A DNA stretch of 64,000 nt. It comes from a virus. Below are positions 18,362 through 63,525 of the stretch, piece by piece; position 1 is the first letter of the stretch; each line of letters opens with the position of its first letter. Made by a program: the position numbers and the translations under genes. The DNA lies in IMG/VR virus record IMGVR_UViG_3300025133_000033; one strand, given 5' to 3'. A model generated the notes under the pieces. It saw only the letters and a program-made list of their open reading frames with translations, made no database searches and was not told the origin of the DNA.

Positions 18362-19215
18362 GCCTTTATCTCCACTAAATCCCAGAATTTATTTTTAGAC
18401 TCATCGCACCGCTTACGGAACTCTTGAAGCCCGTAACTATTATAGTCATGCACTGCCCCTATATTATCTCCAACCTCTAGGTCAATACCACAGAGGACAG
18501 CCTCTCCAACCGCACGACAGAACGCTTCAAAGCCAATGGGGTGATAGTATAAGGTCTTGTACTTGTTATATAATACAGGCATGTAGTCGTAGCTTACAGT
18601 ACCTAGAAATTCTACATTAGGAAATCTCCTAACAGTATTCTCCATGTTCGGGTCACCCCAAGCGGCAACAACAAATTGCTTATCAGGATTATGGAGGACA
18701 TGAGAGAAAAAGTTCTGAGTCCCTTTAAGAAAATGCATGAACCCAATATATAAGGTCTTGTCTTGTCTTTCTTCTGGACTCTTGGTTACCTTAAACTTTT
18801 TAGTATTAATAGGAGGAGTTATGATGCTGACATTATGAAAGATGGGTCCAAATCTTTCAACAAACATCCGGTGATGATAATCGGATAGAAAAAAAGACTG
18901 CTTAGCACTACCGTATAATAGCTTACGGTCTTCTACAGAGAGATATGAGCAAGAGTCATGCTCTAGTCGCACATGATTAGGGAACTGGCATATGAACTGA
19001 AACACCTCGGGACGACGTAATCTCAGGTGCTCTAGGTTGTTACTGACTAGTAGATCAAAGGTATTGGCCTGTATTAGTTCATCTCTATCATTTAGATTAA
19101 AGCAAGTGATCTCATGACCCCTCTTCCTTCCCTCTTTAATGATCTCGTCATCTGTCCTTTGCGACCCACCAGGATTATTATTGATGTTGAAGTCGCTTAT
19201 CCATAATACTTTCAT
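18358..19215 (-). CDS. GT4 glycosyltransferase
   Basis: KG...VEFLG...EAFCRAVGEAVLCG. Confidence 0.82.
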   Translation of the reverse strand: MKVLWISDFNINNNPGGSQRTDDEIIKEGRKRGHEITCFNLNDRDELIQANTFDLLVSNNLEHLRLRRPEVFQFICQFPNHVRLEHDSCSYLSVEDRKLLYGSAKQSFFLSDYHHRMFVERFGPIFHNVSIITPPINTKKFKVTKSPEERQDKTLYIGFMHFLKGTQNFFSHVLHNPDKQFVVAAWGDPNMENTVRRFPNVEFLGTVSYDYMPVLYNKYKTLYYHPIGFEAFCRAVGEAVLCGIDLEVGDNIGAVHDYNSYGLQEFRKRCDESKNKFWDLVEIKA

Positions 19216-19223
19216 ATTGGTCC

Positions 19224-19844
19224 TTATCTTAATGGTGCTGGCAGGTATGGGCTTGGTTCACTTTTCGTAGCCATACGACCAAAGATCTTATCGTAATCAA
19301 AAAATCGCCAGCGATTTTGGTGATCAAAATTAGGGGCGTAACAAGCCTCAGTTATATACTTATGAGTATCTATCCAATTATCGAAAAACATATCATGCTT
19401 GCAAATTCCAAACATCCAGTGAGGTATTTCTTTCTTTCCTTGAGGACAGCAGATAATAACGGGCTTGCGTTGGTAGGAAGATAGGCATGACTCATGGTAG
19501 CTACCACACATATGAGCTGTCTTGTCTATATAAAGAAGAACCGCATCGGCCTTATCAACCATGCGGTAATCGTCTGCTACGACAGTCTTAATGATCTCGT
19601 GCATCTCATCGTAGCGTCCTTCCTCTTTCATATCGAGGATCATTTGATAGTATCCATCGTCCTCATCTAGTCCGTAGGTTGCCTTATTGTATGGGCAAAG
19701 TACTCCTATGCCATGAGAATGGAGGAATTTAGTCTCTTCCTGTCTCCATGTAGCACCACGATCAGCTACATCATCCATAGGACCAGCCAAGTAAAACATG
19801 GCCCCATCTAATCTATGTCTCATTAAATTATCCTGTAGTACCAA
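19224..19844 (-). CDS. nucleoside 2-deoxyribosyltransferase-like protein
   Basis: FYLAGPM, D..MVDKAD, GSYHE. Confidence 0.75.
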   Translation of the reverse strand: MVLQDNLMRHRLDGAMFYLAGPMDDVADRGATWRQEETKFLHSHGIGVLCPYNKATYGLDEDDGYYQMILDMKEEGRYDEMHEIIKTVVADDYRMVDKADAVLLYIDKTAHMCGSYHESCLSSYQRKPVIICCPQGKKEIPHWMFGICKHDMFFDNWIDTHKYITEACYAPNFDHQNRWRFFDYDKIFGRMATKSEPSPYLPAPLR

Positions 19845-20343
19845 CCACTACCAGCGTAAATGCTGCTCCTGAACCAACTGCCCCATCCCCCAAGATGACT
19901 TCTCGATTGGTCCCATCTACCACTAGTCCAGCCGTAGGATCGGAATAAATATAGCAGGACTTAGGCTTTATCAGCACATTTCCAGTTCCGCCATTAAACA
20001 AAGTGTCTAAAGCCAATGTTCCTGTAGAGTATACATGAATATCTACTCCAGACAATGTTTGTCTGTTCTCAAAAATTATACTCTTGACTTGATTGAATTG
20101 AACAGATGTGACTAAATCAAAAACTTCTTTTTCTAGTGCCCTAAGATCGAAGTACTGCTTACCCCCTGAAGGAAGGTTCCCGCTCGCAATTACACCGTAG
20201 TTAATTTCCTCAGAGCCAGTGCCATTAGTAAGAGCCTGACTATAGGCTAGACCAGCGGACTCATTCTGTAGATTTGATCCTGCTTTAATTAAAGTAAAAT
20301 TAATATCACTTTCTAGAGTGGCTGTTGCCGTTACGTTTGACAT
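19828..20343 (-). CDS. hypothetical beta-rich protein (possibly virion)
   Basis: G/T/S-rich composition. Confidence 0.55.
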   Translation of the reverse strand: MSNVTATATLESDINFTLIKAGSNLQNESAGLAYSQALTNGTGSEEINYGVIASGNLPSGGKQYFDLRALEKEVFDLVTSVQFNQVKSIIFENRQTLSGVDIHVYSTGTLALDTLFNGGTGNVLIKPKSCYIYSDPTAGLVVDGTNREVILGDGAVGSGAAFTLVVVGTTG

Positions 20344-24021: not shown

Positions 24022-24393
24022 TCATTTTATTACGCCTGCTTTCTTATAAAAGGAACGACGGTAATTTTCGCTATATACGTTAAACTCTTTTTCTTTTTTA
24101 CATCTCGCCTTAGCTTTATGAATAAGACTGGTCCCAATCCCTCGTCTACGATATTTCGATTTTACATAGACCATAAGGTTGCAATCCCATACATGGGACT
24201 CTGTAATAATAGCCACTCCTATAGGAGTCTCCCCATCAAAAGCCATAGCCATAGAGTAGACTGGATAACCAGGAATTGCACATGCTACTTTGATCCCGCT
24301 AGAGCCCCACTGAAAGTGTAGTCGGTGGGCGATGACTAGACCTTTCCACTCTTTTATTTTTCGGCTACTTTTAGTTGTCTTATACTTTATCAA
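24022..24393 (-). CDS. GNAT acetyltransferase
   Basis: VYVKSKYRRRGIGTSL, FYKK. Confidence 0.85.
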   Translation of the reverse strand: MIKYKTTKSSRKIKEWKGLVIAHRLHFQWGSSGIKVACAIPGYPVYSMAMAFDGETPIGVAIITESHVWDCNLMVYVKSKYRRRGIGTSLIHKAKARCKKEKEFNVYSENYRRSFYKKAGVIK

Positions 24394-25331
24394 ATCAATT
24401 TCCTCCCACCTTTGGTCTTAATGATCTTATGATGTTGGATCAGCCACGGCTCAATTGTACTCTTCACTGTCTCTATGTCAACATTAATTCCAGAACAAAT
24501 TGAATCTACTCCAACCGGACCTCCTCCATTTTTCAACAAAAAATCAAGATAGAGACGGTCGTTCTCGGTCGATCCATCTAGGCCAATTCCACGAAGTGCC
24601 AATGCACGCTCTACGTGGCTCGCTGAGAGCCTTGAGACCCTTTTGGCGATACCGTAGTCGCGAATCCACTCCAGTAGCCCATTGGCGATCCTGGGGGTTC
24701 CTCGGCTGGATTTGGCAATTGTCGTCAAACCCTCCTGTCCGATGGGAACTTCTAGCTTTTTGGCGTTATTTATCAACAAAATAACCAATTCCTCTGGATC
24801 ATAGAGACGCAGAGGGAACTTCAGCTTGAATCGGTCGCGGAATGGAGCAGCAAGACTTCCCATTTCAGTCGTTGCACCCACTAAAGTGAATTCTGGCAGT
24901 TGCTCGCTGATTACTTCACCCACTTGTCCCTTTTTTCCTTCCACAGAGATATCTAAGCGGAAATCTTCCATTACAGGATACAGGAACTCTTCAACTAGAT
25001 TGGTGATTCGGTGAATTTCATCAATAAAAAGAATCGAGCGTCGATAGCGAGCAGGATTAGCCACCATCTTCCATAGGAGAGGTAGCAGCTTACTTACAGT
25101 TCGGAGATTTGCCCCATTAGCCACCTGAATGTCAACATTTAGCTCATTGGCCAGTGCATTAGCCAGAGTGGTCTTGCCAAGTCCTGGTGGACCGTGGAAT
25201 AAGCAGTGATTGAGAGCAGCATCTCGCTGATTAGACGATACTACAGCGATCTTTAGCGACTCAAGAAGTTCTTCCTGGCCAACTAGGTCATTAAACCGTT
25301 CGGGTCGTAGTATATTCATCGGAACTTTCAT
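24390..25331 (-). CDS. ruvB: Holliday junction branch migration helicase RuvB
   Basis: LRP..F...GQ, GPPGLGKTTLA, FIDEIHR, LYPVMED, GATT, RDRF, RGTPRIAN. Confidence 0.95.
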   Translation of the reverse strand: MKVPMNILRPERFNDLVGQEELLESLKIAVVSSNQRDAALNHCLFHGPPGLGKTTLANALANELNVDIQVANGANLRTVSKLLPLLWKMVANPARYRRSILFIDEIHRITNLVEEFLYPVMEDFRLDISVEGKKGQVGEVISEQLPEFTLVGATTEMGSLAAPFRDRFKLKFPLRLYDPEELVILLINNAKKLEVPIGQEGLTTIAKSSRGTPRIANGLLEWIRDYGIAKRVSRLSASHVERALALRGIGLDGSTENDRLYLDFLLKNGGGPVGVDSICSGINVDIETVKSTIEPWLIQHHKIIKTKGGRKLI

Positions 25332-46474: not shown

Positions 46475-46733
46475 AAACTCAGGTGCAACTCGCGTGCTAC
46501 TGACTATCTCAAGACTACCCAAGCTAGGTCGGCTGCGACGGCGGAATACTCCCCGGTTGGTATTTAAATTCTCAAAAAAAAACTCGGGTGCAAAGACTTG
46601 ACGGGGGACTGGGGACTTTAAGCTATAAGGGCTGAGACATTCCTCAGAATGGCAAAAAATCCGCTGAAAAACTCGCGTGCAAGGACTAGACGAGGGACTA
46701 GGGGCTTTAAGCTATATGGGGTAGTACACCCCC
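46475..46733 (+). repeat. family B repeat, three tandem copies (AACTCGCGTGCAA...GAC...AAGCTA...ACA); also at 50890, 55662, 61749
   Basis: Visual alignment of six co-oriented copies (the 46487 copy is degenerate). Confidence 0.8.
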
Positions 46734-47120
46734 ACAATGGGGCAAAAAAAATCCCAGAAGTAGGAGTTTTTAACTTTTTGTTCTAAGTCCTTTAATACCA
46801 ACAACTTACGTCCACGCAACAAGGGCCAAGTCATAAGTCGTTACGTACCAATACCTTACAGCTATTATTATAGCACTTTTCCGGCTCAAATCAAGGGGGA
46901 ATTTCCGTAAACCCTTTAGCTGCAAGAGTTTACAACAAATCGCCCTAAGTCCTTTCATACCAAGGGGTTACGTCCAGGCCCGGCCCGGCGGCGAGCTAAG
47001 TCCTTTGATACCAACGGGTTACGTCGATTTTTTGCGAGAATGCATAAAAAAACCCCCACCCCCCGGTTACCGGCTTTGCGGGCCAGCTCACGGGGGGCAG
47101 GGGTAGGAAAGTCCCTCAGA

Positions 47121-48144: not shown

Positions 48145-48554
48145 CCCCTGCTGGGAAAGTTTTTCAGAAAAATAAATCGCCGTAAGTCGTTGGTATCAAA
48201 GGGGTTAGGTCGGCCCCCGGCGGCGGCTGGCCCTAAGTCCTTTAGTCACAAGGGTTTACGTCAGAAACTTCCAGTAATTCGGTGCTGATAATTTTCGAGT
48301 CGCTCCCGTCGTGCGTCACGGCGTAGTAGCAATTAGCGTTGCAATCGTCAATCATGTCCTGCTCAGTAGTCGAGCCGTTCTCAATTAAATTTAATTTAAT
48401 TATAGCATAGGCGGTAAGATAGGGCATTGTAGCTCCAGTGTAATATAGCCCCCCTTGCGGGGGGCTATGGTTCACAAGTTAGGTTAGCTCTCCATCCATG
48501 TGACGAACACCCACAGAAAGAGGAGCACGATAAAGGTGAGGGCTAGGGCCTCAA

Positions 48555-49114: not shown

Positions 49115-49897
49115 CTAGACTCCTACAAAAAACCCTTGTGATTGCTCAATGCGGGCTTTTGCTTTTTTCTTATTCTTAGGCAATTTGACCCCTAGCCCGA
49201 CTATAACGCCAGCCGGATCATTAAAGCGTAAATCGGAAACATCCCCGTTGACTACCTTCCACCCATTCCAACTAGACGGAATGATCGGCTTCAAAGTATT
49301 CTTATCGTAAAATGGAACCGCAACATTCATGCCACATTCTAGCACGTTCCGAACATAGTCCAGACTAGACCGTTCCGACCATGAGTAGGTCAGATGATAA
49401 TTCTCAGGTAAATCACCATGACACCATGCAGACACGTAAGATTTTACTTTTGTATATCCGTAAAATTTCCACTTAGGAAAAATGTCGAACATTTGCGGCA
49501 ATTTTAGGTGCCACGGTTGATCGCTCAACACATTAGGACGGAAGGCTACAGGAACCCCCAGACGGGTGGCTTTACGATCCACTTTGTGCAACTCAGGAAG
49601 CAAGATCGACCAAAATGCCTTGAGATCGGTCGCGTACAATTTTGTACGGTTAATTCTCACCTTGTCAATAGAGGGGGTAAATTCAGCCCGTCCCGTGCCC
49701 CCCAGACATGCGGCTTTGCATAGCTCAGTAAATGCGGGGCACATATTGTGACCAGACAGATCGGCTTGGGCCAGACTAACTCCGGCGTTATACCACCCCA
49801 CAGACTTGAGCAGTTTGGCGTTCGCGTGCGGCTCAGTAATAAGACTACCGAAACCATGCGATTGTGCCAGCGATTTTGCAGCTTGTAAACTCAGCAT
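49115..49897 (-). CDS. GP88-like phage protein
   Basis: NMCP....CKAACL...GR, RPNVLSD, FYGYTK, NYHLTYSWSE, GDVSDLRF.DP. Confidence 0.8.
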   Translation of the reverse strand: MLSLQAAKSLAQSHGFGSLITEPHANAKLLKSVGWYNAGVSLAQADLSGHNMCPAFTELCKAACLGGTGRAEFTPSIDKVRINRTKLYATDLKAFWSILLPELHKVDRKATRLGVPVAFRPNVLSDQPWHLKLPQMFDIFPKWKFYGYTKVKSYVSAWCHGDLPENYHLTYSWSERSSLDYVRNVLECGMNVAVPFYDKNTLKPIIPSSWNGWKVVNGDVSDLRFNDPAGVIVGLGVKLPKNKKKAKARIEQSQGFFVGV

Positions 49898-50024
49898 AGC
49901 TTTCCTTTCCTCTTGGGTTATGCTTCAATTATACAATACGTAGTCCGAAAGTCAAGCCCCCTAGCAATATTTTTATCAGAAAAACAGATCGTCGTAAGTC
50001 GTTACCAGCAAAGGGTTTACGGTT

Positions 50025-50040
50025 TGGCATGATATTTGCA
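50025..50040 (+). promoter_or_regulatory. sigma54 -24/-12 motif (first of 10 on + strand)
   Basis: TGGCAYG-N4-TTGC at 50025, 53207, 54189, 56574, 57828, 59413, 60478, 61406, 62238, 63211. Confidence 0.75.
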
Positions 50041-51037
50041 GTAAGAAATCGTCGTAAGTCGTTGGTATCAAAGGGGTTAGGTCGTCGCCGGGCCGGTCAC
50101 CAACCTAAGTCCTTACACAGCAAGGGGTTACGTCGATAATTAATCGCCTTTTAAAAGTCGGTTACGTGTTTCACCTAGAATTTTAAGCTGCTTCAAATAC
50201 TCCTCACGCTGAACAGTAAACCAAGCGTTCTCGGCCTTGAGGGATAGCTGATCAATAGCGACTTCTAGCTCAGCAATCTTCTTTTCTCTTTTTTCTCTCA
50301 TAATACCTCTAAGGTAGGAAGATCATCAACAACTTTACACTTAAAGCTTTTTACTAACCAGCCACTCTTATCGCTCAAGGCGTCAGCAATTCCTTCTTCG
50401 TCGTCAACGTCCACGGTCATTTGGTCGGAAAGATTACCTTTTATTTTAGTGGCTTCTATAGCATCTCCATCGGTATCCTCAGCCTCAACGCACCAGTCTA
50501 TATCATAGCAAAATACCTTCATTATAGCCCCTCCCATAAATTATCAGTTTGTTCCATGAACTCTTCAAAGTCACAGCCGCAATCGTCACAGAACCCGAAG
50601 CCGTTTATATTGCCTATCTTACAGTCAGGGCAACTAGCTCCCTCGTATTCACCGTATTCGCTGCTCATTTTTTCCCTCGATTCGGCGTTTCTTTTTACTG
50701 TACTTTTTAAGCCACTCCGTTTTCTCACGGCGACCCCTACCACAGCGGGAGCCGCCCATCCCTCCCTTAATCTTCATAAAATTCGTCCCTTTGTGCACGG
50801 GAATCGTTCAGTCATTGTGTTTCTCCTATGCTTCCATTATACCTTATGTATCGTCACAGTCAACCCCTAGCCTTTAATTTTATCATAAAAAGTCGCGTGC
50901 AATGAATGAATAGGGGACAGGGGACATCAAGCTAGATAGGCTGGTACATATTACCCCACAAAAAAACCCCATCAGACTAAACTGATAGGGCATTGGGTCT
51001 ACATCGTCGAAACGATGCACCACGCGGCATGGAGCCG

Positions 51038-51250
51038 CTAGACTAATGTGATTCGCGAATCAAGCCGCATAAACTTGTAGCTTGAAAACCGCTTGTCGTC
51101 GTAGAGCGAGGGATTCTCGTGGTCTACAGTAAAGATTGCCTTGTCAACTTCGGTAACGTGACCAATACGTTCCTTTTTGTTGTACATAAAAGACACCTTC
51201 TGTCCCGGTCGCACATTACGACAATCTGTCAAAATTACTGGCACTGTCAT
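51038..51250 (-). CDS. small Sm/WYL-like domain protein
   Basis: VSF.Y....R...V...RFSSYK..RL pattern; own promoter. Confidence 0.5.
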   Translation of the reverse strand: MTVPVILTDCRNVRPGQKVSFMYNKKERIGHVTEVDKAIFTVDHENPSLYDDKRFSSYKFMRLDSRITLV

Positions 51251-51611
51251 TTTCCTTTTCTCCTTGGGTTAATGTATATCCTAATTATACCATGTTAGTC
51301 TCGAAAGTCAATAGAAAAAAACGAAAAAACTTTTCGTCGTAAGTCGTTGCTATCAAAGGAGTTAGGTCGGCCCGCCGCCGGTCGTCGCCCTAAATCCTTA
51401 TCAGATAACGACTTAGGGGCATTCTATTCCCCTTCTTCTACAGAGTCAATATCTGTTGAGGCATCTATCCATTGCTGCCCCTGACCGCTTTCAAGCCAAG
51501 CCATCGACGCGGCATCATCTACGTCTTCGGCTTCTACCGGGATTGTTATTGTCTTTTTTAAAGTAACTAGATATTGAGGCATTTGCTTTCCTTTTGTTTA
51601 AAAATAAAAAT

Positions 51612-51753
51612 AAGGGATAACGGGATTCGAACTATAGCTGGCGTGTCTCACCACAGTACTATGCGACCACGAGGGCAGTTGCAACTACCCATTGGGACCA
51701 GCCCGCATTCCTGGCATTAGCTGCCAGTACATTGCCTCTTATGTTATATCCCC
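51612..51753 (-). tRNA. CUA-anticodon tRNA-like gene with 70-nt insertion in the T arm
   Basis: GGGGATA/TATCCCT, ACAT/ATGT, CTGGC-AGCTAAT-GCCAG, GCGGG[insert]TTCGAAT-CCCGT. Confidence 0.65.
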
Positions 51754-51764
51754 AACACTTTTAG

Positions 51765-51838
51765 CGACCCTAACCGGAATCGAACCGGCAACCCCTAGAT
51801 AGACAATCTAGTGCTCTGCCTGATTGAGCTATAAGGTC
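51765..51838 (-). tRNA. tRNA-Asp(GTC), second copy
   Basis: CTAGA-TTGTCTA-TCTAG; homologous to 36592..36666. Confidence 0.9.
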
Positions 51839-52295
51839 AAATCATACTATCATTATACCATCGGGCGTGGTAAAGTCAACCCCATAGCAGAAAAAACAAT
51901 AAGAAATCCGATAATAAGTAGAGTTTCCATTCTGGTCTCCTTCCCTACTACTATTATCGGCATTTGTCAACCCCAATCTTTAATACTTCATAAAAGAAAA
52001 AAAAGATGTAAGTCCTTTGGTAGCAAGGGGTTACGTCCACTCCTCCCGGCGGCTCGCCCTAAGTCCTTACGTGGCAAGGACTTACGACGAAACCTTAGTA
52101 ATTTATGTAGGAAAAAAATCGGCGGAACTCACCCTTTACTCTAGTGGAACCTTTACGTGCAAGCCGCACACCGGCAAGTCTTTTTTCATTCTATCGACTG
52201 TCGAAAAAAGCTCTAGCTGTCAAAAAAGTATGGCTACGGTCCTGTGAGTTTTGTCGGGACTACTCGATACAGAGACTTTACCCGTCACTAGTGAG

Positions 52296-52367
52296 TATTG
52301 CACCGGGGTAACGCTCCCCGCTCTCCAGCTTGAAGGGCTGGCGACATCGCTCCTAGTCCAGTGCAAC
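52296..52367 (-). tRNA. tRNA-Glu(TTC)-like with atypical T loop
   Basis: GTTGCAC/GTGCAAT, CCAGC-CCTTCAA-GCTGG, CGGGG-AGCGTTA-CCCCG. Confidence 0.65.
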
Positions 52368-52414
52368 AAAGATGCCCCGTTTTACGTCGGGGCCACACGT
52401 CAAGGGGATGAACC

Positions 52415-52603
52415 CTACAGGTCGGCGTTGACGTTGTAACGATCACGGGCGACCTTGCGAATGTAGCCGATCTGCCCAGTATGCAAGGTTTTACCCGAGC
52501 CTACTTCGACGATTCGAGCCCATTGGCTGTTTTGACTATTCGCCCGAGTATTTCGCACGATGCGAATCTTCGTTGCGAACAAAGCGGTAGAAACTTTACG
52601 CAT
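52415..52603 (-). CDS. small basic hypothetical protein (MRKVST...)
   Basis: AAGGGG RBS and own promoter. Confidence 0.6.
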   Translation of the reverse strand: MRKVSTALFATKIRIVRNTRANSQNSQWARIVEVGSGKTLHTGQIGYIRKVARDRYNVNADL

Positions 52604-53334
52604 GTTGATTTCCCCTTGTAGGAAAAAGAAAGTGATGACCAGCACGATACTTTGATTATACCATGCTGGTCGTGAAAGTCAATAGACTAATAGCTTTTTT
52701 TGCCGCGAATTACTTTCGCTTCGATCAGAGAGTTTTTGAGCGACTTGAACAAAGACAAAGCGTCGTTGTGGCTCATGTCCGTTTGGACCTTAGTTTCGTC
52801 CAGACCGACAATTTCGGTGAGCGTCAACTCGATCCGATCACGATAGTTTTTGTAAGTCGATCCGGTAGCGTTTTTCAGCTCGTGTTTGATGACAGTTTTC
52901 ATGGTCTCGTTTCCCTTGTGAAGTAGTAGTGAAGTTGTACCCTGATTATACCATGTCGATGGCAAAAGTCAAGGCCAGACTAAAAGAATTTCTTAAAAGT
53001 TTTGATCGCACGTCGTAGAACCCGAACGTTGATCTTGAACATATCGTTGTGGTAGCCTAGCTCGCACATTTCCAGTTCGCAGTCCAGCTCGTCCATTAGT
53101 CGTAAAACTTTTTTGTAGTTCATTGTTTTTCCCTTCCTTATACCCCCATTATATCATATCGGCTCTTAGAGTCAACCCTCTTGAGAGAAAAAACTCAGAA
53201 AATTTTTGGCACGGTATTTGCAGTAAGAAATCGCCCTAAGTTGTTGGTATCAAAGGGGTTACAGCGGCCCCCTGCCGGGGCTTGCCCTAAGTCCTTATAT
53301 GGCAAGCACTTACGACGATTCTTTCCGTATGTAC

Positions 53335-53370
53335 AAAAAGAAACCCCGGCAGATCTTTACCGGGGCTTCT
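53335..53370 (-). terminator. intrinsic terminator
   Basis: CCCCGG/CCGGGG hairpin followed by a U-rich tail on the - strand. Confidence 0.6.
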
Positions 53371-54110
53371 CGATTGGCGTAATAGTGCGTGCTTTCCTCC
53401 CCGATCAGGGGGTACGGTATGTGCATCACATCTAATCGCCTTGTGGGTCGAGGGTTGGGGGACTCGAACCCGCCTCCTTCCCGCCATCGCACGCTGTAAA
53501 TCTATAGCGGGTAATTAAGCCGCCAGCAAAATCCTCCCTTACCCGTTTAGTAGCGGGTATCCACGGCTTTGCTTTACCGTTTCGTAGGGCACCCTTTCGG
53601 GTGGTTCAAAGGACATTCGATTTGTCGCGTGAGATGTCGGTCGTGCAACCTTATACACCACACCCTCACATTGTTTTATGGCCTCCCTGCTCACGCCTAA
53701 CCCCGGTTGTGTACTTGCGTCACGAGGTAGCAGTTTGGTCTCGGGTGCTCTCACCCCTATCTGGCTCATGGTCTGAATCAACGGCGGCGATGCTTTTTCG
53801 GCCATCTTTCCGCGTCCCCCGCCTTACCTTGACTATTGGGTTTCTTCCTAACCGCTTAGGTTTTCGCGGCTCAGAATACCGATGGCATGTTACCATACCA
53901 GCCTATTGACAGGCATAACCGGCTGAGTATTCCCTCAAGTGTTTGGTGTAGCCGTTGACTACCTTTTCTAAAGTCGGCTCCTCGATTTCCAAATGACAGG
54001 TTGCCCAAATCGAGTTATAGTTAATAGCAAAACAACCTCACCATTAACCCGCCGCTCACATTATCGTCCTTTTTGTCACCTCCTCGTTGGCTTGTCTCTT
54101 GTTGCTTCTT
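53371..54110 (-). ncRNA. candidate large structured ncRNA (~750 nt)
   Basis: Promoter-to-terminator unit without a credible ORF; many GC hairpins. Confidence 0.5.
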
Positions 54111-55317
54111 ATACCACCATTATACCATTTGGGGTTATAATGTCAAGGGGCAACGGCTTAAATATCAAAGAAATAACAGAAAAACTTTTGGCACGGCATT
54201 TGCAGTAAGAAATCGTCGTAAGTCGTTTAATAGCAAGGGGTTAGGGCGAGCCCCGGCGGGGCGTCGATGTAAGTCCTTTGCTAGCAAGGGTTTACGTCGA
54301 TTTTTCTTCTTTTATCACATGAGAAATGGGAATCCAAAACTTTTTCTTACCCCCCTCAATGGATTGTCGAAACTCTACATAGGCTATGCCCATTCTAGTC
54401 TTGATCACATTACAATCATAAATAACCCCCATCGTCTGGGGGTGGAACGCTTTTGCTTTGGTCATTTTTATCCCTGTGGAGTAATAGAATCGAAGTTTAA
54501 TTCTCTAACATTACGCCTACGCATGTCGCGGCGTAATAGTCGAACCTGCTTCGCTAAAAGCTCAATCCTGTTCAGCTTAACATGATAAGCGTCCTCTGCC
54601 CTATGAATGTCTTTAGCCTCTACTAGCTTGGTCAGCCATTCTATTCTTTTTGCATCTATTAATTCAGCAATTTCTAATAGGTCGCATTCTTCCATTACCC
54701 GTCACTCCTTTGAATCCAATCAAAAATGGCATCGTCCAAGCTATCCGTATAGTGGCCCCAGTACGTTGACCCTGGAGTGCTCGGATTAGATAGCCACGTC
54801 ACAAACCTGTGGACGTGCTGTTCACCAAAATCAGCCACCCAGCACCAACAGCCATCCCGCCTTTGTAGCCGGTCGATGATCGTCGCCCCGTTGGGCAGCT
54901 TCTTATCTTCGTAGGGATTAAACATTTTAACCTTTCCAGTTGACTGAGCATTTAAGACCGTGAGATTCCAGATAGTCTAGAATCAACTCCGCCCTTTTCT
55001 TCGTTTCGACGATCTTGCTTTGCCTCTCGCCTCTTTTGTCCCACCATTCGATTTCCCACATCTGCCAACCTCCACGTCATTTTGGGCAACGTGAGAACCA
55101 TCTTCCAGCGTGATCCCGCCAGCAGTGATTTCCGTTACACGAGAACCATTGTAAAACCAACCCAAACCTAATAACTGCATAATCAATACTCCTTGAGTAC
55201 TTTACGAAACTTGTCCCCGCGTGTACGCTCACGCTTGGTGCGTTTATCTTTCATCGTTACCGCTCGGCATTTCGGCATCCAAATTCTTTTTTTTGTAGTT
55301 TTCATATCTCTATTATA

Positions 55318-55653
55318 CTATACGCCGTAAGGATTGCAACCCATTGAGTGATAAATTTTATCGAAAAAGTCTTCTAAGTCAGCGATAGACCACCCATGAT
55401 GTAGCTTAACATTAAAGGTTAATCCTCTATCGGTCTCGAATTGCCCGTCAGCCTCATAGCGGCCATTACTGGGGGCTTTCTCGTCTACAAAAGGGGGGTA
55501 CTCGTACACAGTGATAAAGTATAGCTTAACCCCTTCCTTCTTAACACACTTCTGGAACGCAGCACAGGCATATGGTGCTAATAGCTCATTAGGCTTAAAT
55601 TCCTTATAGCCGTTGTGTTTTAGTAGTGTGTGAAAAATTGAATTATCTCGCAT
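55318..55653 (-). CDS. hypothetical phage protein (MRDNSIF...)
   Basis: FQKCV....GVKLYFITVYEY; start placed downstream of the family B repeat. Confidence 0.55.
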   Translation of the reverse strand: MRDNSIFHTLLKHNGYKEFKPNELLAPYACAAFQKCVKKEGVKLYFITVYEYPPFVDEKAPSNGRYEADGQFETDRGLTFNVKLHHGWSIADLEDFFDKIYHSMGCNPYGV

Positions 55654-56675
55654 GGTAAAAAAACTCGCGTGCAATGAATGAATAGGGGACAGGGGGCAGG
55701 AAGCTAGATCGGCTAGGACAGATATTCCCCACGGATATGAGCGACCATAACACGCCAACGCCCGAACTTATTAGGTATCTTTCCATGCTTCTATTATAAC
55801 ATCGGCTTTCTTAGTGTCAACCCTTGAGGAAAAATATATAGAAAAACTTTTCGTCGTAAGTCGTGGCTATCAAAGGGGTTAGGGCGAGCCGCCGCCGGTT
55901 GTCGCTGTAAGTCGTTGGTATCAAAGGACTTATAGCCCTTTTTTGACAAACCATACCCTATACATTCCCGCCATAACGTGCTGGCTTTTAATCTCGTAAA
56001 AGCTGCCGTTAAAGGGTTTCTTAAAATCTTGAGCATCTTTAAGCCAAGTTTTAATATCCCTTAGCGTCCATGTATAGGTGCGGGATGGATTCCAATTTTC
56101 CATAACTAATCCTTAAACATAAGGGGCCAACCATCCTCATCCAGATCAAGCCCGATCTGTTGAGCCTCTTCGAACTCATCCATAGGATAAGTATCCTGGT
56201 CGTGCAAATTGCCTAGATTAAGATGTTCCACGGGTTCCACCAAATGATCAATCATTCTTAAACTCCTGGGATGTAGCCACCACTGGCCGATTCTACTTCC
56301 TTACCATTTTTGTCCACAGCTACCACATGACAGCCGCAACATTCACAATTAAACGACACCTTTATCTTGAGCAGCTTGATACGCTTCCGCCCTAGACTAT
56401 CCTTATAGGACACACGGACCTTTCGCCCCGCATGTTGAAGCAGCTCTTGGTTATTATAACCGGCTCGTAGATTGATAACTGGTTTCATTTTGTCACCTTT
56501 GCTTTGATACTTTAATTATACTATTGGTATCGGCTATGTCAAGGCACACCATTAAATATTTTGATATTTTTATTGGCACGATATTTGCGTAAGGAATCGT
56601 CGTAAGTCCTTTGATACCAAGGGGTTAGGGCGAGCCCCAGCCGGTCGTCGCCGTAAGTCCTTTGATACCAACGGG

Positions 56676-56888
56676 TTACGTCGATTTTTTTAGGGGCTTA
56701 GCAATATCTACCTCGTTTAGGGGGAGCCATCCCATCCACATATCAGCAGCCTCCACCAATACGGATTGCTCACCCCTCATGCAGGGAGGAAAGTCTACAT
56801 CTTTGATCTTAAATATGGGGCCATGCTCTCTGATCCTGTCGCGGGTTCTTTTGGTGGCTCGCCTTGCTTTGGGTTGTAGTATTCTCAT
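56676..56888 (-). CDS. hypothetical protein; near-identical copy at 63313..63525
   Basis: One amino-acid difference; stop codon supplied by the family A dyad. Confidence 0.7.
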   Translation of the reverse strand: MRILQPKARRATKRTRDRIREHGPIFKIKDVDFPPCMRGEQSVLVEAADMWMGWLPLNEVDIAKPLKKST

Positions 56889-56940
56889 TATAAGATCTTT
56901 ATGGTGATGTCGGCCAGGGCCAGTCTAACTCAAAATGTGT

Positions 56941-57135
56941 TGGTGGGTCAGCAGGAGTCGAACCCGCATTGGCACCGTCCACCTGTTGCTGTTGACCTTA
57001 GTGCTCCCGCACTGCAAGGAGTTGATCACCCTCCGAGCTGTCAACGAACGGAAGGGTGGATAGCCCTTCCAACAACGAACGATACTGGATACCACGTATC
57101 AGCCACCCGCTTTGTTGCGGATAACCTATGCACCC
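56941..57135 (-). ncRNA. ~195-nt tRNA-shelled RNA, copy 1
   Basis: T arm GCGGG-TTCGACT-CCTGC, encoded CCA; covaries with 58209..58402. Confidence 0.8.
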
Positions 57136-57260
57136 AAATTGTATTGTTGGAAGTTTCTGTTTTGTTATGCGGATCAACTTCCTAAGAAACCGCTTCGTCA
57201 ACTTGCTTAATGTACACTTGACAAGTCAACAGGCTTTGTGGGGGAATTTAGCCCCGAACC

Positions 57261-57515
57261 TTATTCGCATCCGTACTTTTCGCATTCCTTGATTTTGTTT
57301 TGAATGTATAACTCTCGGGCACCCGAGAACGCGGGCACGCGGTACACGTTGACCTTCTCGTCAAGTACAACGTCAACATCCCCGTAGGTTTCCACAAAGT
57401 ATTGAACATCGGACTCGTCACACAACAGCAGTTGCGAATCGGTTCGAGTTTCAACAGAACGCATAGCGTTGCCATAAGCGGGAAGGGTAACTTGCATTTG
57501 GGAAGCTTTAATCAT
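57261..57515 (-). CDS. hypothetical protein; paralog of 63577..63834
   Basis: Shared Y.VP..S.AR..YI..K...C..YGCE C-terminus. Confidence 0.7.
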   Translation of the reverse strand: MIKASQMQVTLPAYGNAMRSVETRTDSQLLLCDESDVQYFVETYGDVDVVLDEKVNVYRVPAFSGARELYIQNKIKECEKYGCE

Positions 57516-57538
57516 AATCTTACTCTTTCAAAAATACC

Positions 57539-57596
57539 GGCTATTCAGTCCCTTGGTGGGCTACTCGCTACTCACGAGTCCAGTAAGCCTTGCTTT
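57539..57596 (-). ncRNA. three-way-junction 5' leader motif (also 59123-59183 and 63854-63914)
   Basis: Conserved GGCTTACTGGA/TAGC/ACTGAAT with covarying stems. Confidence 0.65.
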
Positions 57597-57613
57597 CTAT
57601 AGTATATATATAA

Positions 57614-57629
57614 TGCACTATTCGTGCCA
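57614..57629 (-). promoter_or_regulatory. leftward sigma54 -24/-12 motif (copy at ~59198-59213)
   Basis: TGGCACG-AATA-GTGCA. Confidence 0.65.
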
Positions 57630-57930
57630 AAGCGAACAAAATAAAAACTTTTTTATAAGTCGTTGGTATCAAAGGGTTTAGGTCGTGCCAAAACTTTTCT
57701 TCAAAACCCCCCCTTTGTCAAGAAGTGTAGTCAGTTTGTGAGCAATTCTGAAAATCTTGTCGTAAGTCGTTGTGTGGTATAGGGTTACAGCGATTCTCAT
57801 TTTGGGACCAGATTCTCATTTTGGGATTGGCACGATATTTGCAGTAAAAAATCGTCGTAAGTCGTTGGTATGAAAGGACTTAGGGCATCGCCGGGCCGGG
57901 CGTCGATGTAACCCCTTGGTATCAAAGGGC

Positions 57931-58038
57931 TTACGTTAAGGCGTACGCTATAAGAATAATAGCAGTCGTGCCGAGGAACATCACGGCGGCGGGTATGATG
58001 AGAACCTCAGTAATAAAGAAAACAATAGCACGCAACAT
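57931..58038 (-). CDS. 35-aa hydrophobic membrane peptide MLRAIVFFITEVLIIPAAVMFLGTTAIILIAYALT
   Basis: GAGG RBS; same-length homolog at 62354..62461. Confidence 0.7.
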   Translation of the reverse strand: MLRAIVFFITEVLIIPAAVMFLGTTAIILIAYALT

Positions 58039-58129
58039 GTCAAGTACCTCTAGAAAGTGTCAAGTATAATCAGTACATCGCGGCCAATCTGGTATTACGC
58101 CGATTCGAGGGGATTTCTCCAGTCCCCTT

Positions 58130-58141
58130 TTAGTAGCCCAT
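58130..58141 (-). CDS. Met-Gly-Tyr minigene
   Basis: AGGAGG-N9-ATG GGC TAC TAA; conserved at 62572..62583 with synonymous GGA. Confidence 0.55.
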   Translation of the reverse strand: MGY

Positions 58142-58208
58142 TGGTTTTATCCTCCTCATGTTGAAACTGCTAACCCGTCTATCAGAGTCAGCCAAACTTG
58201 TCATGTAT

Positions 58209-58402
58209 TGGCAGGCGTGTCGAGAGTCGAACTCGAATTGGTCTAACCACTTGTTGACGTTTTGCTGCGATGCTCCCGCACCAAAAGGGCTGTACACACC
58301 CTTTGCAGCTAACTAAGGTAGGCTGGATAAGCCTACCGACAACGGTTAAACTGGATACCAAATATCAGCCACCCGCTTTGCTGCGGGCTAGCTTACACAC
58401 CC
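58209..58402 (-). ncRNA. ~195-nt tRNA-shelled RNA, copy 2
   Basis: GGGTGTG/CACGCCT-G-CCA; TCGAG-TTCGACT-CTCGA. Confidence 0.8.
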
Positions 58403-59697
58403 AGATTGTATTGTTGGGCGGCGGCTAGGTCGCTCGTTAGGCCACCATTCCAGGCGGCACCCATTTGTTTTAACCCGTTCAATCTAACCTGCGGGTTCAT
58501 GTACCCTGCGGAAGACTTTTGAACGACCCAGCGTTTTTTATCAACGACTTACGCAATCGGAACGGATGTCTTTTTGTATTGTGGCGGGGGTTAACCCGCT
58601 TGCCATGTTTTCAGTTATACTATAAATCTTGCCGTTGTCAAGCCCGAATATGAAATACTTTTTCAACTCGGTAAGTATATTCGCTTTCTTCCTCTCTGGT
58701 TAATTTGGCCCATGCCTCATTTGCCGCTTTCTCAGTCTCGTAACTTACGATGATTGAGTTACCTTGGCTTCCCCTGTTAAAATCCATAACGATGACATAG
58801 TTCATAGCTCTGTTTCCTTGGTGGCGTTGTGTTTTGTATTACTGAATTATAGCATAGGTGGCGGGTTGTGTCAACACCTAAAAGCGAATATTTTCACCAT
58901 TATGGCAGCGAATCCCCAGGACAGCATTACCCGCCCACTGGGTTAGGCGAAGATACTTCTCCTCCTTAGTTTCATGCCACTTGGCACGATATTCAGAAGC
59001 AAGACGCATAGCCTTATCCATATCATAGCCTAGCTTTTCAGCGGCCTCCAATGCTTTGGCTTTGCGGTGGTCGTGAATACGTTGGGCTAAAATGTAACTC
59101 ATAAAAACTCTTTCTAAAATTAGCAAGGCGATTCAGTCTCAGGTGAGCTACTCGAATTTTTCGAGTCCAGTAAGCCTTGCTTTCTATAGTATATATAATG
59201 CACTATTCGTGCCAAACTAGAGAAAATTGAAATTTAGTCGTAAGTCGTTGATACGAAAGGACTTAAGGCGTGCCAAAACATCTTCTCAAAACCCCTCCTT
59301 TGTCAAGAAGTGTCGTCAATTTGTGAGCGATTTTGAAAATCTTGCTGTAAGTTATTGGTATGTATAGAGTTACGGCCATTCCCAAATCGAGACTCGATTC
59401 TCATTTTGGGATTGGCACGGTATTTGCAGTAAAAAATCGTCGTAAGTCGTTGGTATGAAAGGACTTAGGGCATCGCCGGGCCGGGCGTCGATGTAACTCC
59501 TTTGGCAGTAAGGGTTTACGTCGATTTCTTTCGGGGGGTGCAGTCCATGTCTGTATGGGTATAAAAAAACCCCCCTGGAGCTTGGTTCGCCACAAACCGC
59601 TCGACAGGGGGGCACCACAACGTAAGATTTTATTTTTTTAATAATCCATTAAAACCCTTTCCCCAGATTGTATTCCTCGGCATTTAATTGTTTCTGC

Positions 59698-60096
59698 CTA
59701 GTATTTGTAACACACCCGATCTTCTAGGTCTTCAGCGTCGATCACGCCACCGCTAATCATACCCCCCACAAAGACCTGTTCATTTCGGTACAGCTTATCT
59801 GCATTAACATCATAGGTGATGTGGACTTCCTCTTGTCCGGTCTTGAACTCGATCAACTGAGCCTCCACTTGGGCACGATATGCGGCGATACGCTTGGCCT
59901 TTTCTGCCTTGAGTTGGGCACGCTCGACGCTCGCTTCCACTTCCCGATTGTAGACCTTGTTGATCCCGTCCAGGGTTCGCCCGCCCGACTTGTTATCGTG
60001 GTAGCGTTCGGGGAGCATGGAATTGGGAACGAAGATAGCATCATTCAGAGTCAGGGTGATTTCTTCTAGTAGCTCGTATCCAGTTTTGGTCGTCAT
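59698..60096 (-). CDS. hypothetical protein
   Basis: Own promoter, AAGGA RBS. Confidence 0.65.
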   Translation of the reverse strand: MTTKTGYELLEEITLTLNDAIFVPNSMLPERYHDNKSGGRTLDGINKVYNREVEASVERAQLKAEKAKRIAAYRAQVEAQLIEFKTGQEEVHITYDVNADKLYRNEQVFVGGMISGGVIDAEDLEDRVCYKY

Positions 60097-60764
60097 GGCG
60101 ATTTCCTTTATGTGGCGTATGTTGTTTCTTATACTCTTATTGTACCAAGTGATCTGAGAATGTCAACCCCTAGCACCGATTATTTCGAAAATACTTTAGA
60201 TTCGCAACAATCGGTTACAATCGAGTGCCCCGAAAATGGCAGGGTCTTAACTTCGAATTTCATATTAGGATCTTTGTGGGTATAGCTTACCCCCACGGTG
60301 CATTGTGTCTTACACCCGATAGAACTAGAAACGAGCAAGCCAGCAATGAGAGCGATGGTGATGTAGATGTACTTTTTCATAGTTTTTCCTTTATGTTGAT
60401 TGCCTTATCCTATACTATATATATCGGCATGTCAACCCCAATCCATTAACAAAACCCAAATAAATACGAAATACTTTTGGCACGGTATTTGCGTCAAAAA
60501 TCGTCGTAAGTCGTTGCTACCAAAGGAGTTAGGGCGAGCCGCCGCCGCCCGTCGTCGTAAGTCCTTACGTACCAAGGGGTTACGTCGATAATTTGAAGAC
60601 GGTTTCAATGCCGGATACGACAAGGCTAGAATAGTCCTTATAGCTATCAAGTAGCTGGCTAATAGCGTGGACTTCGTTCTCCGCTTCAAAGTCGCAGAAC
60701 TGTACAAACGTCAACTTGTCGTCGCGGCACAATTCCTGATAAGTTACGCGAAATTTAGACATTT

Positions 60765-61016
60765 TTATCCCTCATATCCAAAGTCGTAGTCCATCCCGTC
60801 ATAATCGTCATAAAAGCCATAGGATTCGTCGCATTCGCAGAAGTCGTCCAACTCCTGACGTTCGAGCTGCAAGTCACGATGATACTCCACCATGTCGTCA
60901 GCCGCCCCCTCACAGATAGCACAGATCTCTACGTCGTGGGCGACTAGGGAGCCGCAGTCCTCACAGGTCCACACGCCAGCCATGATACGCGAGTCGATTT
61001 CTTGCTTTTCACACAT
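60765..61016 (-). CDS. acidic Zn-ribbon protein; paralog of 61902..62129
   Basis: MCEK...DSR...W.CEDCG.LV...DFCECDESYG. Confidence 0.7.
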   Translation of the reverse strand: MCEKQEIDSRIMAGVWTCEDCGSLVAHDVEICAICEGAADDMVEYHRDLQLERQELDDFCECDESYGFYDDYDGMDYDFGYEG

Positions 61017-61901
61017 AATAAAAATCCTTGGGGGAACGTGGTGGTTATGCTTCAATTATAACAAGTGTTTGGCGGGTGTCAACCCTATCCCGATAAAATT
61101 CTCAAAGTTTTTTAAAACTCTGAGGCTGTCGGCTGATCGTTGTGCTGTTCAACGAACTGGTTGAATTCGAGCGTCCACCTATGTGGGTGGCTCACTATCC
61201 CCACGATCTCATCAGCTCGCCAACCCTCATCGGCTAGGTGGCTGAGGAACATGGCGAAACCTTCGGTCGTGAGCGTGAGTCCGGTAGTTGTCTTGAGCAT
61301 TTTGCTTCCTTAGCAAGTGGCGTTTAGTACTCTTCCATTATACATAGTATCGGTCGTTTGTCAACAACAAAACCACTAAATACCGAAATAAACCCGAAAT
61401 ACTTTTGGCACGATATTTGCAGTAAGATTTCGTCGTAAGTCCTTTCATACCAACGACTTACATCGACGCCGGGCGGGTGGCCCACCTAAGTCCTTATATA
61501 CCAAGGGTTTACGTCGAATCATTTTCCTTTTTTAGCTACACATACAGGTGCCCCAATCAACACAACACGTACTAGTCCACACTTGACACAATGAACACCA
61601 TACCATATCACCCCCACAGGAATGACAGTATTCGTCCCCTTCCTCATAATCATTTGGCTTATCGTCGTCGTACATCGTATTTCCCTTTCCTTTACTTTAT
61701 TATAGCATATGTTCCAACTGGAGTCAACCCCTAAACCCGCGTGCCAGAAACTCGCGTGCAATGTATGTAGAGGCGACAGGCGACCGAGAAGCTACTATGG
61801 GTAGTACAGTCCCCCCATTAGTAGGGCATCACCTCATCAGGAAGGTAACGGCTGATCCAACTATTCGGAAATTCCTAATAGTTCGCCAACTTTAAGATTT
61901 T

Positions 61902-62129
61902 CTACCATTCGTCCCCCCCATAGCAACCATAGGACTCATCACATTCGCAGAAGTCCTCCCGCTCCTGAGATTCGAGCATCTCATCACGAGCCATTTCCGC
62001 CGACCATTCCTCATCGACGCAACAGCATTCCTCCACGCTATTGGGCACGAGAGCCCCACAATCCTCACACACCCAAGCGTCACCAAGGAAAGATTCGCGG
62101 GAATCGACGTTAGCTTTTTTTTCACACAT
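61902..62129 (-). CDS. acidic Zn-ribbon protein; paralog of 60765..61016
   Basis: Same motifs. Confidence 0.7.
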   Translation of the reverse strand: MCEKKANVDSRESFLGDAWVCEDCGALVPNSVEECCCVDEEWSAEMARDEMLESQEREDFCECDESYGCYGGDEW

Positions 62130-62353
62130 GACATAAGCTCCTGAACACGTTGCGTTTAGTACTCCCTCATTATAGTATATATCGGCATCTTGTCAACATC
62201 TAAATCAACAAAATCACAAAGAAACCCAAAATACTTTTGGCACGATATTTGCGTAAGGAATCGTCGTAAGTCCTTTGATACCAAGGGGTTAGGGCGAGCC
62301 CCAGCCGGTCGTCGCCGTAAGTCCTTTGATACCAACGAGTTACGTCGAAAAAT

Positions 62354-62461
62354 TTAGGAGATTAGCACGGCCAGTACTAGTACGGATAGCGTACCCACGA
62401 ATAGTACTAGAGCGGGGATAACGAAAACTTGCGTCAAAAAAGAAATAATATCACTAATCAT
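62354..62461 (-). CDS. 35-aa hydrophobic membrane peptide MISDIISFLTQVFVIPALVLFVGTLSVLVLAVLIS
   Basis: Homologous to 57931..58038. Confidence 0.7.
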   Translation of the reverse strand: MISDIISFLTQVFVIPALVLFVGTLSVLVLAVLIS

Positions 62462-62571
62462 GTCAAGTACCTTGGAAAAGTGTCAAGTATTAGTCTGATT
62501 CGATAGCTAAGCTATCTCGGCACCCTTACGGATTATGGTGCCTTTTATAGGGGGCTGAGTCCGCTCCCCTT

Positions 62572-62583
62572 TTAGTATCCCAT
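62572..62583 (-). CDS. Met-Gly-Tyr minigene, copy 2
   Basis: AGGAGG-N9-ATG GGA TAC TAA. Confidence 0.55.
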   Translation of the reverse strand: MGY

Positions 62584-63312
62584 TGGCTTTGTCCTCCTAT
62601 GTTGGTTGTCGTTGTTTTGTATGGTTTAATTATACCATGTTGTCGATTGGTGTCAACCCCATTCGCAGTTACTTTTCTGGTTTGTTCAGAAAGTTTTCGT
62701 ATAGCCCCTGATAAGGGGGTACTGGCTTAGGGAAAGCACAAGCACCATGGAACACCACAGCACCGGGAACAGGCTTACTGCAAGGCTTACCGCATAAGCC
62801 GCAGTTTCCAGAACCTTTTTCTTTGTGTTCCCAAACGTGTGGTTTTCGTGGCATGATGTTTTTCCTTAGTGGCGTTGTTTTGTATAATTGAATTGTAGCA
62901 GATTAGTTGGTTGCTGTCAACCCCTGATAGCAGATTATTAGAACATTTCTCATCATGCTCTCGAAATCAGCATAGGATACAATCCCGCACCCATTGGTAT
63001 CGAATAGCACGTCAACAGCTACGTCCATACCATAGCGGTCGATTGCAATGAAGCAATCATTAATGGTAAGATCGCAACGGGCGAGAGTGTCATTTGTGTC
63101 AATCATCATAATTCCTTAGTAACCTTGTTTAGTACTCCCTCATTATACATAGTATCGGCAATTTGTCAACACCAAAACCACTAAAATCACAAATTAGTCC
63201 AAAATACTTTTGGCACGGTATTTGCGTAAAAAATCGTCGTAAGTCCTTTGATACCAACGGGTTAGGGCGAGCCGCCGCCGGTTTTCGTCGTAAGTCCTTT
63301 GATACCAACGAG

Positions 63313-63525
63313 TTACGTCGATTTTTTTAGGGGCTTAGCAATATCTACCTCGTTTAGGGGGAGCCATCCCATCCACATATCAGCAGCCTCCACCAATACG
63401 GATTGCTCACCCCCCATGCAGGGAGGAAAGTCTACATCTTTGATCTTAAATATGGGGCCATGCTCTCTGATCCTGTCGCGGGTTCTTTTGGTGGCTCGCC
63501 TTGCTTTGGGTTGTAGTATTCTCAT
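63313..63525 (-). CDS. duplicate of 56676..56888
   Basis: Near-identical DNA including flanks. Confidence 0.7.
   Translation of the reverse strand: MRILQPKARRATKRTRDRIREHGPIFKIKDVDFPPCMGGEQSVLVEAADMWMGWLPLNEVDIAKPLKKST

Follow-up and report, generated by a model that had tools for sequence, protein, structure and literature searches.

In a 64,000-nucleotide stretch of DNA from a large uncultured phage (IMG/VR record IMGVR_UViG_3300025133_000033; the whole stretch is called the window below), ten perfect matches to the sigma-54 (RpoN) -24/-12 promoter consensus lie within 13 kb, each aimed into a palindromic intergenic linker rather than at a gene. Our best explanation, held with about even confidence, is that these boxes are real, selected docking sites or promoters for the host sigma-54, belonging to the linker and yielding no more than a short, confined transcript. 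A sigma-54 promoter stays silent until it is fired by an ATPase activator, and because of that silence a phage using them can sense host state or reserve polymerase. To our knowledge, Pseudomonas phage YuA is the only cultured phage reported to use sigma-54 promoters, and it does so sparingly.

The pattern TGGCAYG-N4-TTGC has 11 exact matches in the window, where 100 dinucleotide-preserving shuffles lead one to expect 0.01. Ten of them lie on the + strand, exactly where a preliminary description made from the sequence alone had placed them, and in 10 of 10 all 11 fixed consensus positions are matched, which backs the assignment to the RpoN -24/-12 consensus as far as sequence reaches. The published consensus is mrNrYTGGCACG-N4-TTGCWNNw (PMC2725144); the base after TTGC, W in the consensus, is A in six of the boxes and G in four. 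Given with the module that follows each, the boxes are at 50025..50039 (TGGCATGATATTTGC; module 50049-50138, with a single hairpin unit just upstream of the box at 49984-50022), 53207..53221 (TGGCACGGTATTTGC; 53231-53320), 54189..54203 (TGGCACGGCATTTGC; 54213-54302), 56574..56588 (TGGCACGATATTTGC; 56597-56686), 57828..57842 (57852-57941), 59413..59427 (59437-59526; within duplicated block D7), 60478..60492 (TGGCACGGTATTTGC; 60501-60590), 61406..61420 (TGGCACGATATTTGC; 61430-61519), 62238..62252 (TGGCACGATATTTGC; 62261-62350), and 63211..63225 (TGGCACGGTATTTGC; 63234-63323). The ten are near-identical, N4 included. We rejected the possibility that they are sigma70 promoters with TTGGCA as the -35 element, as no -10 element lies at a usable distance; TTGGCA with a usable -10 is found only in two leftward variants, at 57629 and 59214, described below.

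Profile searches and a repeat finder identified 16 modules in the window, 15 complete and one partial, all in one orientation. The module is an imperfect palindrome of about 90 bp that begins TCGYCSTAAGT and consists of two hairpin units around a GC-rich centre. Each unit has a left arm, TCGNCGTAAGTCSTT, a variable 7-nt loop, and a right arm, AASGRNTTACGNCGA (TCGNCGTAAGTCSTT-N7-AASGRNTTACG), with the TAA-to-TTA distance inside the unit constant at 19 nt. Modules and boxes are confined to 46.7-63.3 kb, and 1-46 kb has none. The gap from box to first module arm is 8-9 nt and A-rich in 10 of 10 cases, a distance that places the predicted +1, about 12 nt past the GC, at the base of the first arm. 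The preliminary description had seen a dyad 14-15 bp after each box, which is right when measured to the TAAG core (8-9 nt to the module start), and had likewise predicted the +1 at the start of the module; it had missed the confinement to 46.7-63.3 kb, the two leftward near-boxes, and five modules that have no box. These five are complete and on the + strand (46940..47029, 48177..48266, 51334..51423, 52003..52092, and 55851..55940), so that box and spacer together amount to an optional insert of about 24 bp. In all five the palindrome runs straight into the A/T-rich stretch that precedes the following sigma70 promoter; the module at 51334..51423, for example, is directly joined to this stretch.

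From about 46.7 kb to the window end, small - strand open reading frames (ORFs) lie behind unusually good sigma70 promoters: a promoter scan found 59 promoter-like sites in 45-64 kb where 27 were expected, and 21 - strand sigma70 sites there match at least 11 of 12 consensus positions. The small ORFs of this cassette region are ORFans, none of the five tested having a PHROG match. Read in the gene (-) direction, a linker comprises the end of the upstream ORF, the palindrome, a U-rich tail, the A/T-rich stretch, and a near-consensus sigma70 promoter; in ten of the sixteen linkers the box with its 8-9-nt spacer sits as an add-on between the palindrome and the A/T-rich stretch, with the box facing the palindrome and its back to the sigma70 promoter. 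In this direction the A-rich spacer reads as a U-rich tail right after the palindrome in 13 of 16 modules. Five upstream - strand ORFs stop at the same conserved TAA in the outer arm (module start + 79; 53310, 54292, 56676, 60580, and 63313), and the linker therefore supplies their stop codon. Stable folds on both strands, the GC-rich centre, and the U-rich tail on the mRNA strand would suit a stem-loop that ends upstream transcription; as simple intrinsic terminators, however, the modules were rejected, because the region has no excess of terminator-like sites (18 seen, 19.9 expected) and the terminator scan flagged a single module, 54213-54302, by its last hairpin and T-run on the + strand.

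The boxes had been described as back-to-back with sigma70 promoters. This holds for eight of them, from which the divergent - strand -35 lies at 31, 31, 41, 41, 41, 42 or 69 bp (promoters at 53175-53148, 54146-54119, 56542-56515, 61364-61337, 62196-62169, and 63169-63142; the 42-bp case, box 60478, has a weaker -10), and not for boxes 57828 and 59413, which have no divergent sigma70 promoter within 120 bp. Since the distance varies over 31-69 bp or the promoter is absent, the box is tied to the module and not to the sigma70 promoter. The earlier statement that no + strand gene follows also proved correct, only short TTG/GTG ORFs overlapping - strand genes being present downstream.

The eleventh exact box (49320..49334) is on the - strand, inside and co-oriented with the GP88-family ORF 49115-49897. 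Allowing one mismatch adds the two leftward near-boxes, both - strand copies of TGGCACGAATAGTGC with GTGC at -12: the first (57615..57629) is gene-directed and overlaps a sigma70-like TTGGCA-18-TATACT, and the second (59200..59214) overlaps TTGGCA-16-TATACT. Two TCTCATTTTGGGA dyads abut box 57828 on its upstream side (57795-57826), and an inverted pair of TCTC(R)WTTTGGGA dyads abuts box 59413 in the same way (59380-59411). The TCTCATTTTGGGA dyads occur only at these two places, in the duplicated block, and are positioned for the leftward boxes, lying 165-200 bp upstream of each; the block also has a long structured leader ahead of an ORF of about 82 aa. This block is the most promoter-like sigma-54 arrangement of the window, and by analogy its dyads have the geometry of enhancer-dependent promoters, in the duplicated block alone. 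A shared enhancer for the ten rightward boxes was rejected, given this restriction of the dyads.

To examine conservation, two samples of related contigs were used. The first set was built with a composite pattern (box, 8-11 nt, module start), which matched 20 IMG/VR loci and 6 loci on short contigs of metagenome-assembled genomes (MAGs), and together with the window it gave 104 distinct modules. The second was picked by the hairpin unit GTAAGTCSTT-N7-AASGRNTTAC alone, to avoid circularity, and added 117 new loci (937 kb). The hairpin unit is present in at least 120 viral stretches from many metagenomes (IMG/VR loci L070-L186), and 84 loci of the hairpin-selected sample contain 255 complete two-unit modules. 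The module is thus a very widespread phage intergenic element without an Rfam family: neither the whole window at the gathering threshold nor 46-64 kb at E<=1 gave an Rfam match.

The box is enriched in every related contig, reversed controls giving 0-1, and the hairpin-selected sample contains 60 exact boxes against one match to the reversed pattern. About half of the 104 modules have an inward-pointing box at a gap of 7-9 nt (48 inward in the first set), and module flanks, scored against the consensus on both sides, are bimodal at 4-8 or 10-12 of 12. In the hairpin-selected sample, 14 module-adjacent boxes point in and 3 out, and the other 43 of the 60 lie away from modules in several contexts. 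Among 45 distinct boxes, the positions of TGGCA and TTGC carry about 2 bits of information each, and three of the four in N4 carry 0.4-0.7 bits; a purine after TGGCACG is retained in 80%, and the GG/GC spacing, on whose loss in related phages the preliminary description would have abandoned its proposal, is invariant. Between divergent contigs the sigma-54 contact positions are constant, and it is the flanks, the spacer and N4 that drift. One contig (L024) has twelve modules in a row, each after TGGCAC-NNNN-ATTTGCW with only the spacer varying; most relatives have 1-7 boxes per contig.

Other contexts of the box in relatives include gene-proximal ones: upstream of and co-oriented with the sigma70 promoters of genes; immediately ahead of a ribosome-binding site with its ATG, mostly as box plus ATTATATA, an arrangement that the leftward copies of the window share; and downstream of dyad repeats at a distance of 100-200 bp, which recalls enhancer-dependent promoters. 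Three GTAGCATTTTGC repeats are flanked by two divergent boxes, 200 bp apart, in one set of near-identical related loci, and GTAGCATTTTGCRAC repeats are limited to one such set.

These observations establish the motif with its enrichment and position-specific conservation, its coupling to the module, and the architecture of the linker; binding of sigma-54, transcription from the box, and any influence on nearby promoters are inferred. Sigma-54 holoenzyme would dock at the box as a closed complex, and the polymerase would start at the base of the first palindrome arm; a host activator, or an unrecognised phage one, would fire the box to give a hairpin transcript of about 95-100 nt confined by the palindrome. 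In this mechanism the box would be no gene promoter but a docking or insulating element of the linker, adjacent to the early sigma70 promoter's upstream element. That the boxes are real rather than passengers is argued by their position-specific conservation, the 60:1 enrichment, and their occurrence in several other contexts; that the ligand is sigma-54 rather than a phage protein is argued by the 11-position bipartite match, the exact spacing, the secondary preferences, and the fact that single boxes predominate. Transcription would be favoured by the orientation and spacing to the module, which are conserved, by a G.U bias on the box strand (below), and by the gene-proximal copies.

Several observations weigh against this reading. 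Machinery was sought without success: no window frame contains a GAFTGA-type signature of a bacterial enhancer-binding protein, and five related contigs, one of them 151 kb and rated 100% complete, have no match to PF00158 (activator AAA+ domain) or PF04552 (sigma-54 DNA-binding domain), the controls having worked. A phage-encoded sigma-54 or activator was accordingly rejected for the window (GAFTGA) and these five contigs (PF00158, PF04552). Eight of the ten boxes have no recognisable or common enhancer dyads nearby; a host activator might reach them from solution or through a site that escaped recognition. That the host has sigma-54 is presumed; candidate Planctomycetota MAGs encode it, but their link to the phage is weak. 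On the box strand, a T-run follows the module in 6 of 10 window boxes and in 13 of 47 across the family. With neither covariation nor an Rfam match found, there is no support for a functional structured RNA as the product. The near-identity of the ten window boxes could stem from recent gene conversion within the genome. Two arrangements in relatives are also awkward: tandem boxes, two or three copies 26 bp apart, which suit promoters poorly, and face-to-face pairs, TGGCAC-N5-TTGC, 4-5 bp, and GCAA-N5-GTGCCA, which form a palindrome of about 35 bp and are hard to explain as ordinary promoters. Such pairs are at L022 5503-5537 and 6739-6773, L008 4973-5007, L070 3717-3750, L094 3278-3312, L097 1142-1176 and 3610-3644, L160 547-580, and L186 1312-1346; near them, a third box often points into a module. 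Taken together, the lack of activator and enhancer, the perfection of the consensus, the existence of tandem and face-to-face copies, and the lack of a selected product favour non-productive docking.

The strongest alternative, which we consider unlikely though a serious contender, is that the boxes bind sigma-54 or its holoenzyme and never fire, serving as decoys that pull scarce host sigma-54 to the replicating phage genome, or as static roadblocks or insulators by the linker terminator and the upstream element of the sigma70 promoter. Every copy is a perfect consensus, which is rare among natural promoters, and downstream there is neither a gene nor a covarying RNA. Sigma-54 binds DNA without core enzyme and makes stable closed complexes (PMC2725144). 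Ten boxes in 13 kb is a density some fifty-fold that of the roughly 70 sites in the Salmonella genome (PMC3844500), the missing activator gene and the enhancer-less state of eight boxes are as expected of sites that do not fire, and the tandem and face-to-face copies suit binding sites better than promoters. A decoy, however, does not need the fixed orientation and 7-9-nt spacing to the module that are conserved, the 1-7 boxes per contig of most relatives are few for titration, and relatives also have the box before genes and with dyad repeats upstream.

We think it improbable that the motif is instead an operator of a phage DNA-binding protein that resembles the sigma-54 consensus and forms, with the module arms, a regulatory or recombination site. 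An unrelated protein would have to copy 11 positions, a one-turn spacing, and the purine preference after TGGCACG, and isolated single boxes are by far the commonest arrangement, unlike half-operators. The 35-bp palindromes (TGGCAC-N5-TTGC-N4/5-GCAA-N5-GTGCCA) and 26-bp tandems that recur in relatives are what such a protein might bind, the module arms are sequence-conserved with fixed mismatches and no covariation, and no sigma-54 machinery was found in the phages; no candidate protein, however, has been identified, and the five related contigs yielded no integrase or Y1 transposase. Matches to PF00589 (tyrosine recombinase) and PF01797 (Y1 transposase) were absent there while the positive controls worked, so mobility of the integron attC-like or the REP/BIME-like kind (repetitive extragenic palindrome/bacterial interspersed mosaic element) was rejected, with neither an IntI-type recombinase nor a RAYT-type Y1 transposase in these contigs.

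The linkers are prone to recombination. The closest relative of the phage, the contig behind L004 and L018, shares cassettes with it at 67-92% identity in another order, and the blocks of similarity begin or end at boxes or modules, one of them starting exactly at a box (57827). Two 300-bp duplications are evidence of recent cassette duplication: 56573-56872 and 63210-63509 are 96% identical over box, module, and most of the adjacent small ORF, and 57605-57904 and 59190-59489 are 84% identical over box, module, and leftward promoter block. In the closest relative, the counterpart of module 60501 (L004 3422-3512) is without a box. On such grounds the boxes might be functionless passengers of a repeated linker spread by homologous recombination or gene conversion, in the manner of the PeSL repeats discussed below, and the near-identical window copies, the duplicates and altered cassette order, and the presence or absence of the box at homologous modules all fit. 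We give this little credence, as the sigma-54 contacts stay fixed across divergent contigs where flanks, spacer, and N4 drift, 43 of 60 boxes in the independent sample are outside the module context, and the excess over the reversed control is 60 to 1.

As RNA, either strand of the whole module of this phage forms a single long imperfect hairpin. In three window modules the + (box) strand is more stable than its complement by 6-14 kcal/mol, because of G.U pairs, with z-scores of -3.8 to -5.1; module 56597-56686, for instance, gives -41.5 kcal/mol (z -3.8) on the + strand and -35.9 on the - strand. Counted in the box-strand orientation, G.U outnumbers A.C by 104 to 56 overall and by 61 to 15 at two stem positions, a bias that is only suggestive since the copies are related. 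RNAalifold found no pairs and no consensus structure in 46 box-oriented copies. A three-hairpin model had 79.0% paired cells against 80.8% after shuffling, 500 of 500 shuffles being at least as high, and a single long-hairpin model had 77.7% paired against 79.6% in column shuffles. At several stem positions most copies have a mismatch, and arm combinations with perfect complementarity belong to the rarest. Because pairing does not exceed that of shuffles and mismatches are fixed, the arms are sequence-conserved inverted repeats and not covarying RNA stems. Least probable of all, by a small step, is that box and module form a small RNA (sRNA) gene, giving ten paralogous, sigma-54-driven, structured trans-acting sRNAs of about 95 nt, for although the layout of promoter, hairpins, and T-run (6 of 10), the + strand folding z-scores, the G.U bias, and 7-nt loops that differ among copies would suit it, no consensus structure emerged, neither the three-hairpin nor the extended fold paired better than shuffles, complementary arms are rare, the identical module type exists without any promoter, and Rfam has no match.

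The preliminary description had suggested that the array sponges RpoN polymerase, represses adjacent early promoters, or makes activator-dependent antisense RNA. Each of these roles now appears weakened in part, because the box is coupled in position and orientation to the module and not to the sigma70 promoter, because a transcript would enter the module and, short of read-through, share no more than about 10 nt with the upstream ORF, and because there is no activator gene and no shared enhancer for eight of the ten boxes. Its "dyad pair" is a sequence-conserved linker of the PeSL kind, which also exists without a box, and not a covarying RNA.

PeSLs are intergenic sigma70-promoter/stem-loop repeats of about 100 bp in T4-type phages that flank ORFans and act as recombination points (PMC2839356, PMC4122927). 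Like them, the linkers have a strong sigma70 promoter, an A/T-rich upstream region, and a GC-containing stem-loop extending from the upstream stop codon, and they flank ORFans in cassettes that are reshuffled between relatives. Unlike PeSLs, they have a much larger two-unit palindrome whose arms are sequence-conserved across more than 100 viral contigs, and an optional sigma-54 box, which PeSLs lack. The linkers resemble PeSLs in combining a promoter and a putative terminator, a likeness of layout that need not make this phage a member of the T4 type. An rIIA-like gene is present in the window; a search of the relatives for PF07068 (Gp23) gave no match, and its control was likewise silent.

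Sigma-54 promoters have been described in Pseudomonas phage YuA (Ceyssens et al. 2008, as cited and re-mapped in PMC10914365). As in YuA, host-type sigma-54 promoter sequences occur here beside sigma70 ones in a phage in which no sigma-54 gene was found. YuA has a single sigma-54-like promoter region that drives genes, whereas here ten boxes in 13 kb are aimed into linkers with no gene downstream, in a layout that recurs across many uncultured phages. In Salmonella, E. coli, and Vibrio, sigma-54 sites also occur in intragenic or antisense positions, about 70 per 4.8-Mb genome in Salmonella (PMC3844500). Like those bacterial sites that head no operon, for which roles in repression, interference, or sRNA production were proposed (PMC3844500), the phage boxes stand before no operon; the bacterial sites are scattered, often sub-consensus, and intragenic, whereas the phage boxes are consensus, intergenic, arrayed, and coupled to a repeat. 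The literature searched describes neither arrays of sigma-54 boxes in phages nor phage linkers that bear them, and in it we likewise found no case of a consensus sigma-54 box joined to a widespread palindromic linker, or of such a union recurring in many uncultured phages.

A broader scenario, possible in our view and clearly more tentative than sigma-54 docking itself, is that a widespread phage group has built the host's sigma-54 polymerase into its shuffling early linkers, where short hairpin RNAs or parked polymerases would insulate cassettes and tie early expression to the sigma-54 state of the host. Firing would then depend on a host or unrecognised phage activator, or on help from an extrudable palindrome beginning at +1. 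If true, this would be an enhancer-type second layer of transcription, undescribed for any phage. The recurrence of selected boxes, enriched 60-fold in phages with no sigma factor or activator found, points to an unexplored use by phages of the host's second transcription system, and the boxes offer short, defined DNA fragments for direct sigma-54 binding and transcription assays. The concept behind PeSLs, in which promoter/terminator linkers serve as points of shuffling, is extended to a new and far more widespread palindromic element.

A RuvB-like AAA+ gene of the window (24390-25331, - strand) has relatives, at 38-43% identity, mostly in Planctomycetota MAGs. Five of five Planctomycetota MAGs with such relatives encode PF04552, and the same MAGs are without modules; this gives a weak hint of Planctomycetota as the host lineage. 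Assigning a host through composite-pattern matches was rejected, as these fall on short contigs of MAGs from four unrelated phyla and are probably binning noise.

The window contains 17 tRNA genes, and megablast against phage records gave no match, so that the phage has no nucleotide-level relative among deposited phages. Its early sigma70 promoters share extra features, GGGG often standing before the -35 (GGGGTTGAC) and CCGATA within the 16-bp spacer, as in four of the promoters already located (56542-56515, 61364-61337, 62196-62169, and 63169-63142, all - strand). The CCGATA motif is also found in related contigs and may be a site for an additional factor. A second repeat family, of about 65 nt, is unrelated to the module, non-palindromic, and co-oriented (AAAAACTCGCGTGCAA...GGGGACAGGGGAC); its five copies are at 46578-46642, 46667-46731, 50887-50951, 55659-55723, and 61748-61784, some of them overlapping small - strand ORFs. 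Outside the cassette region, 3819-20343 (- strand) holds a series of sugar-nucleotide and glycan genes that is unusually long for a phage and includes a DegT-type aminotransferase, a C-methyltransferase, a UDP-glucose/GDP-mannose dehydrogenase-like gene, and a glycosyltransferase.

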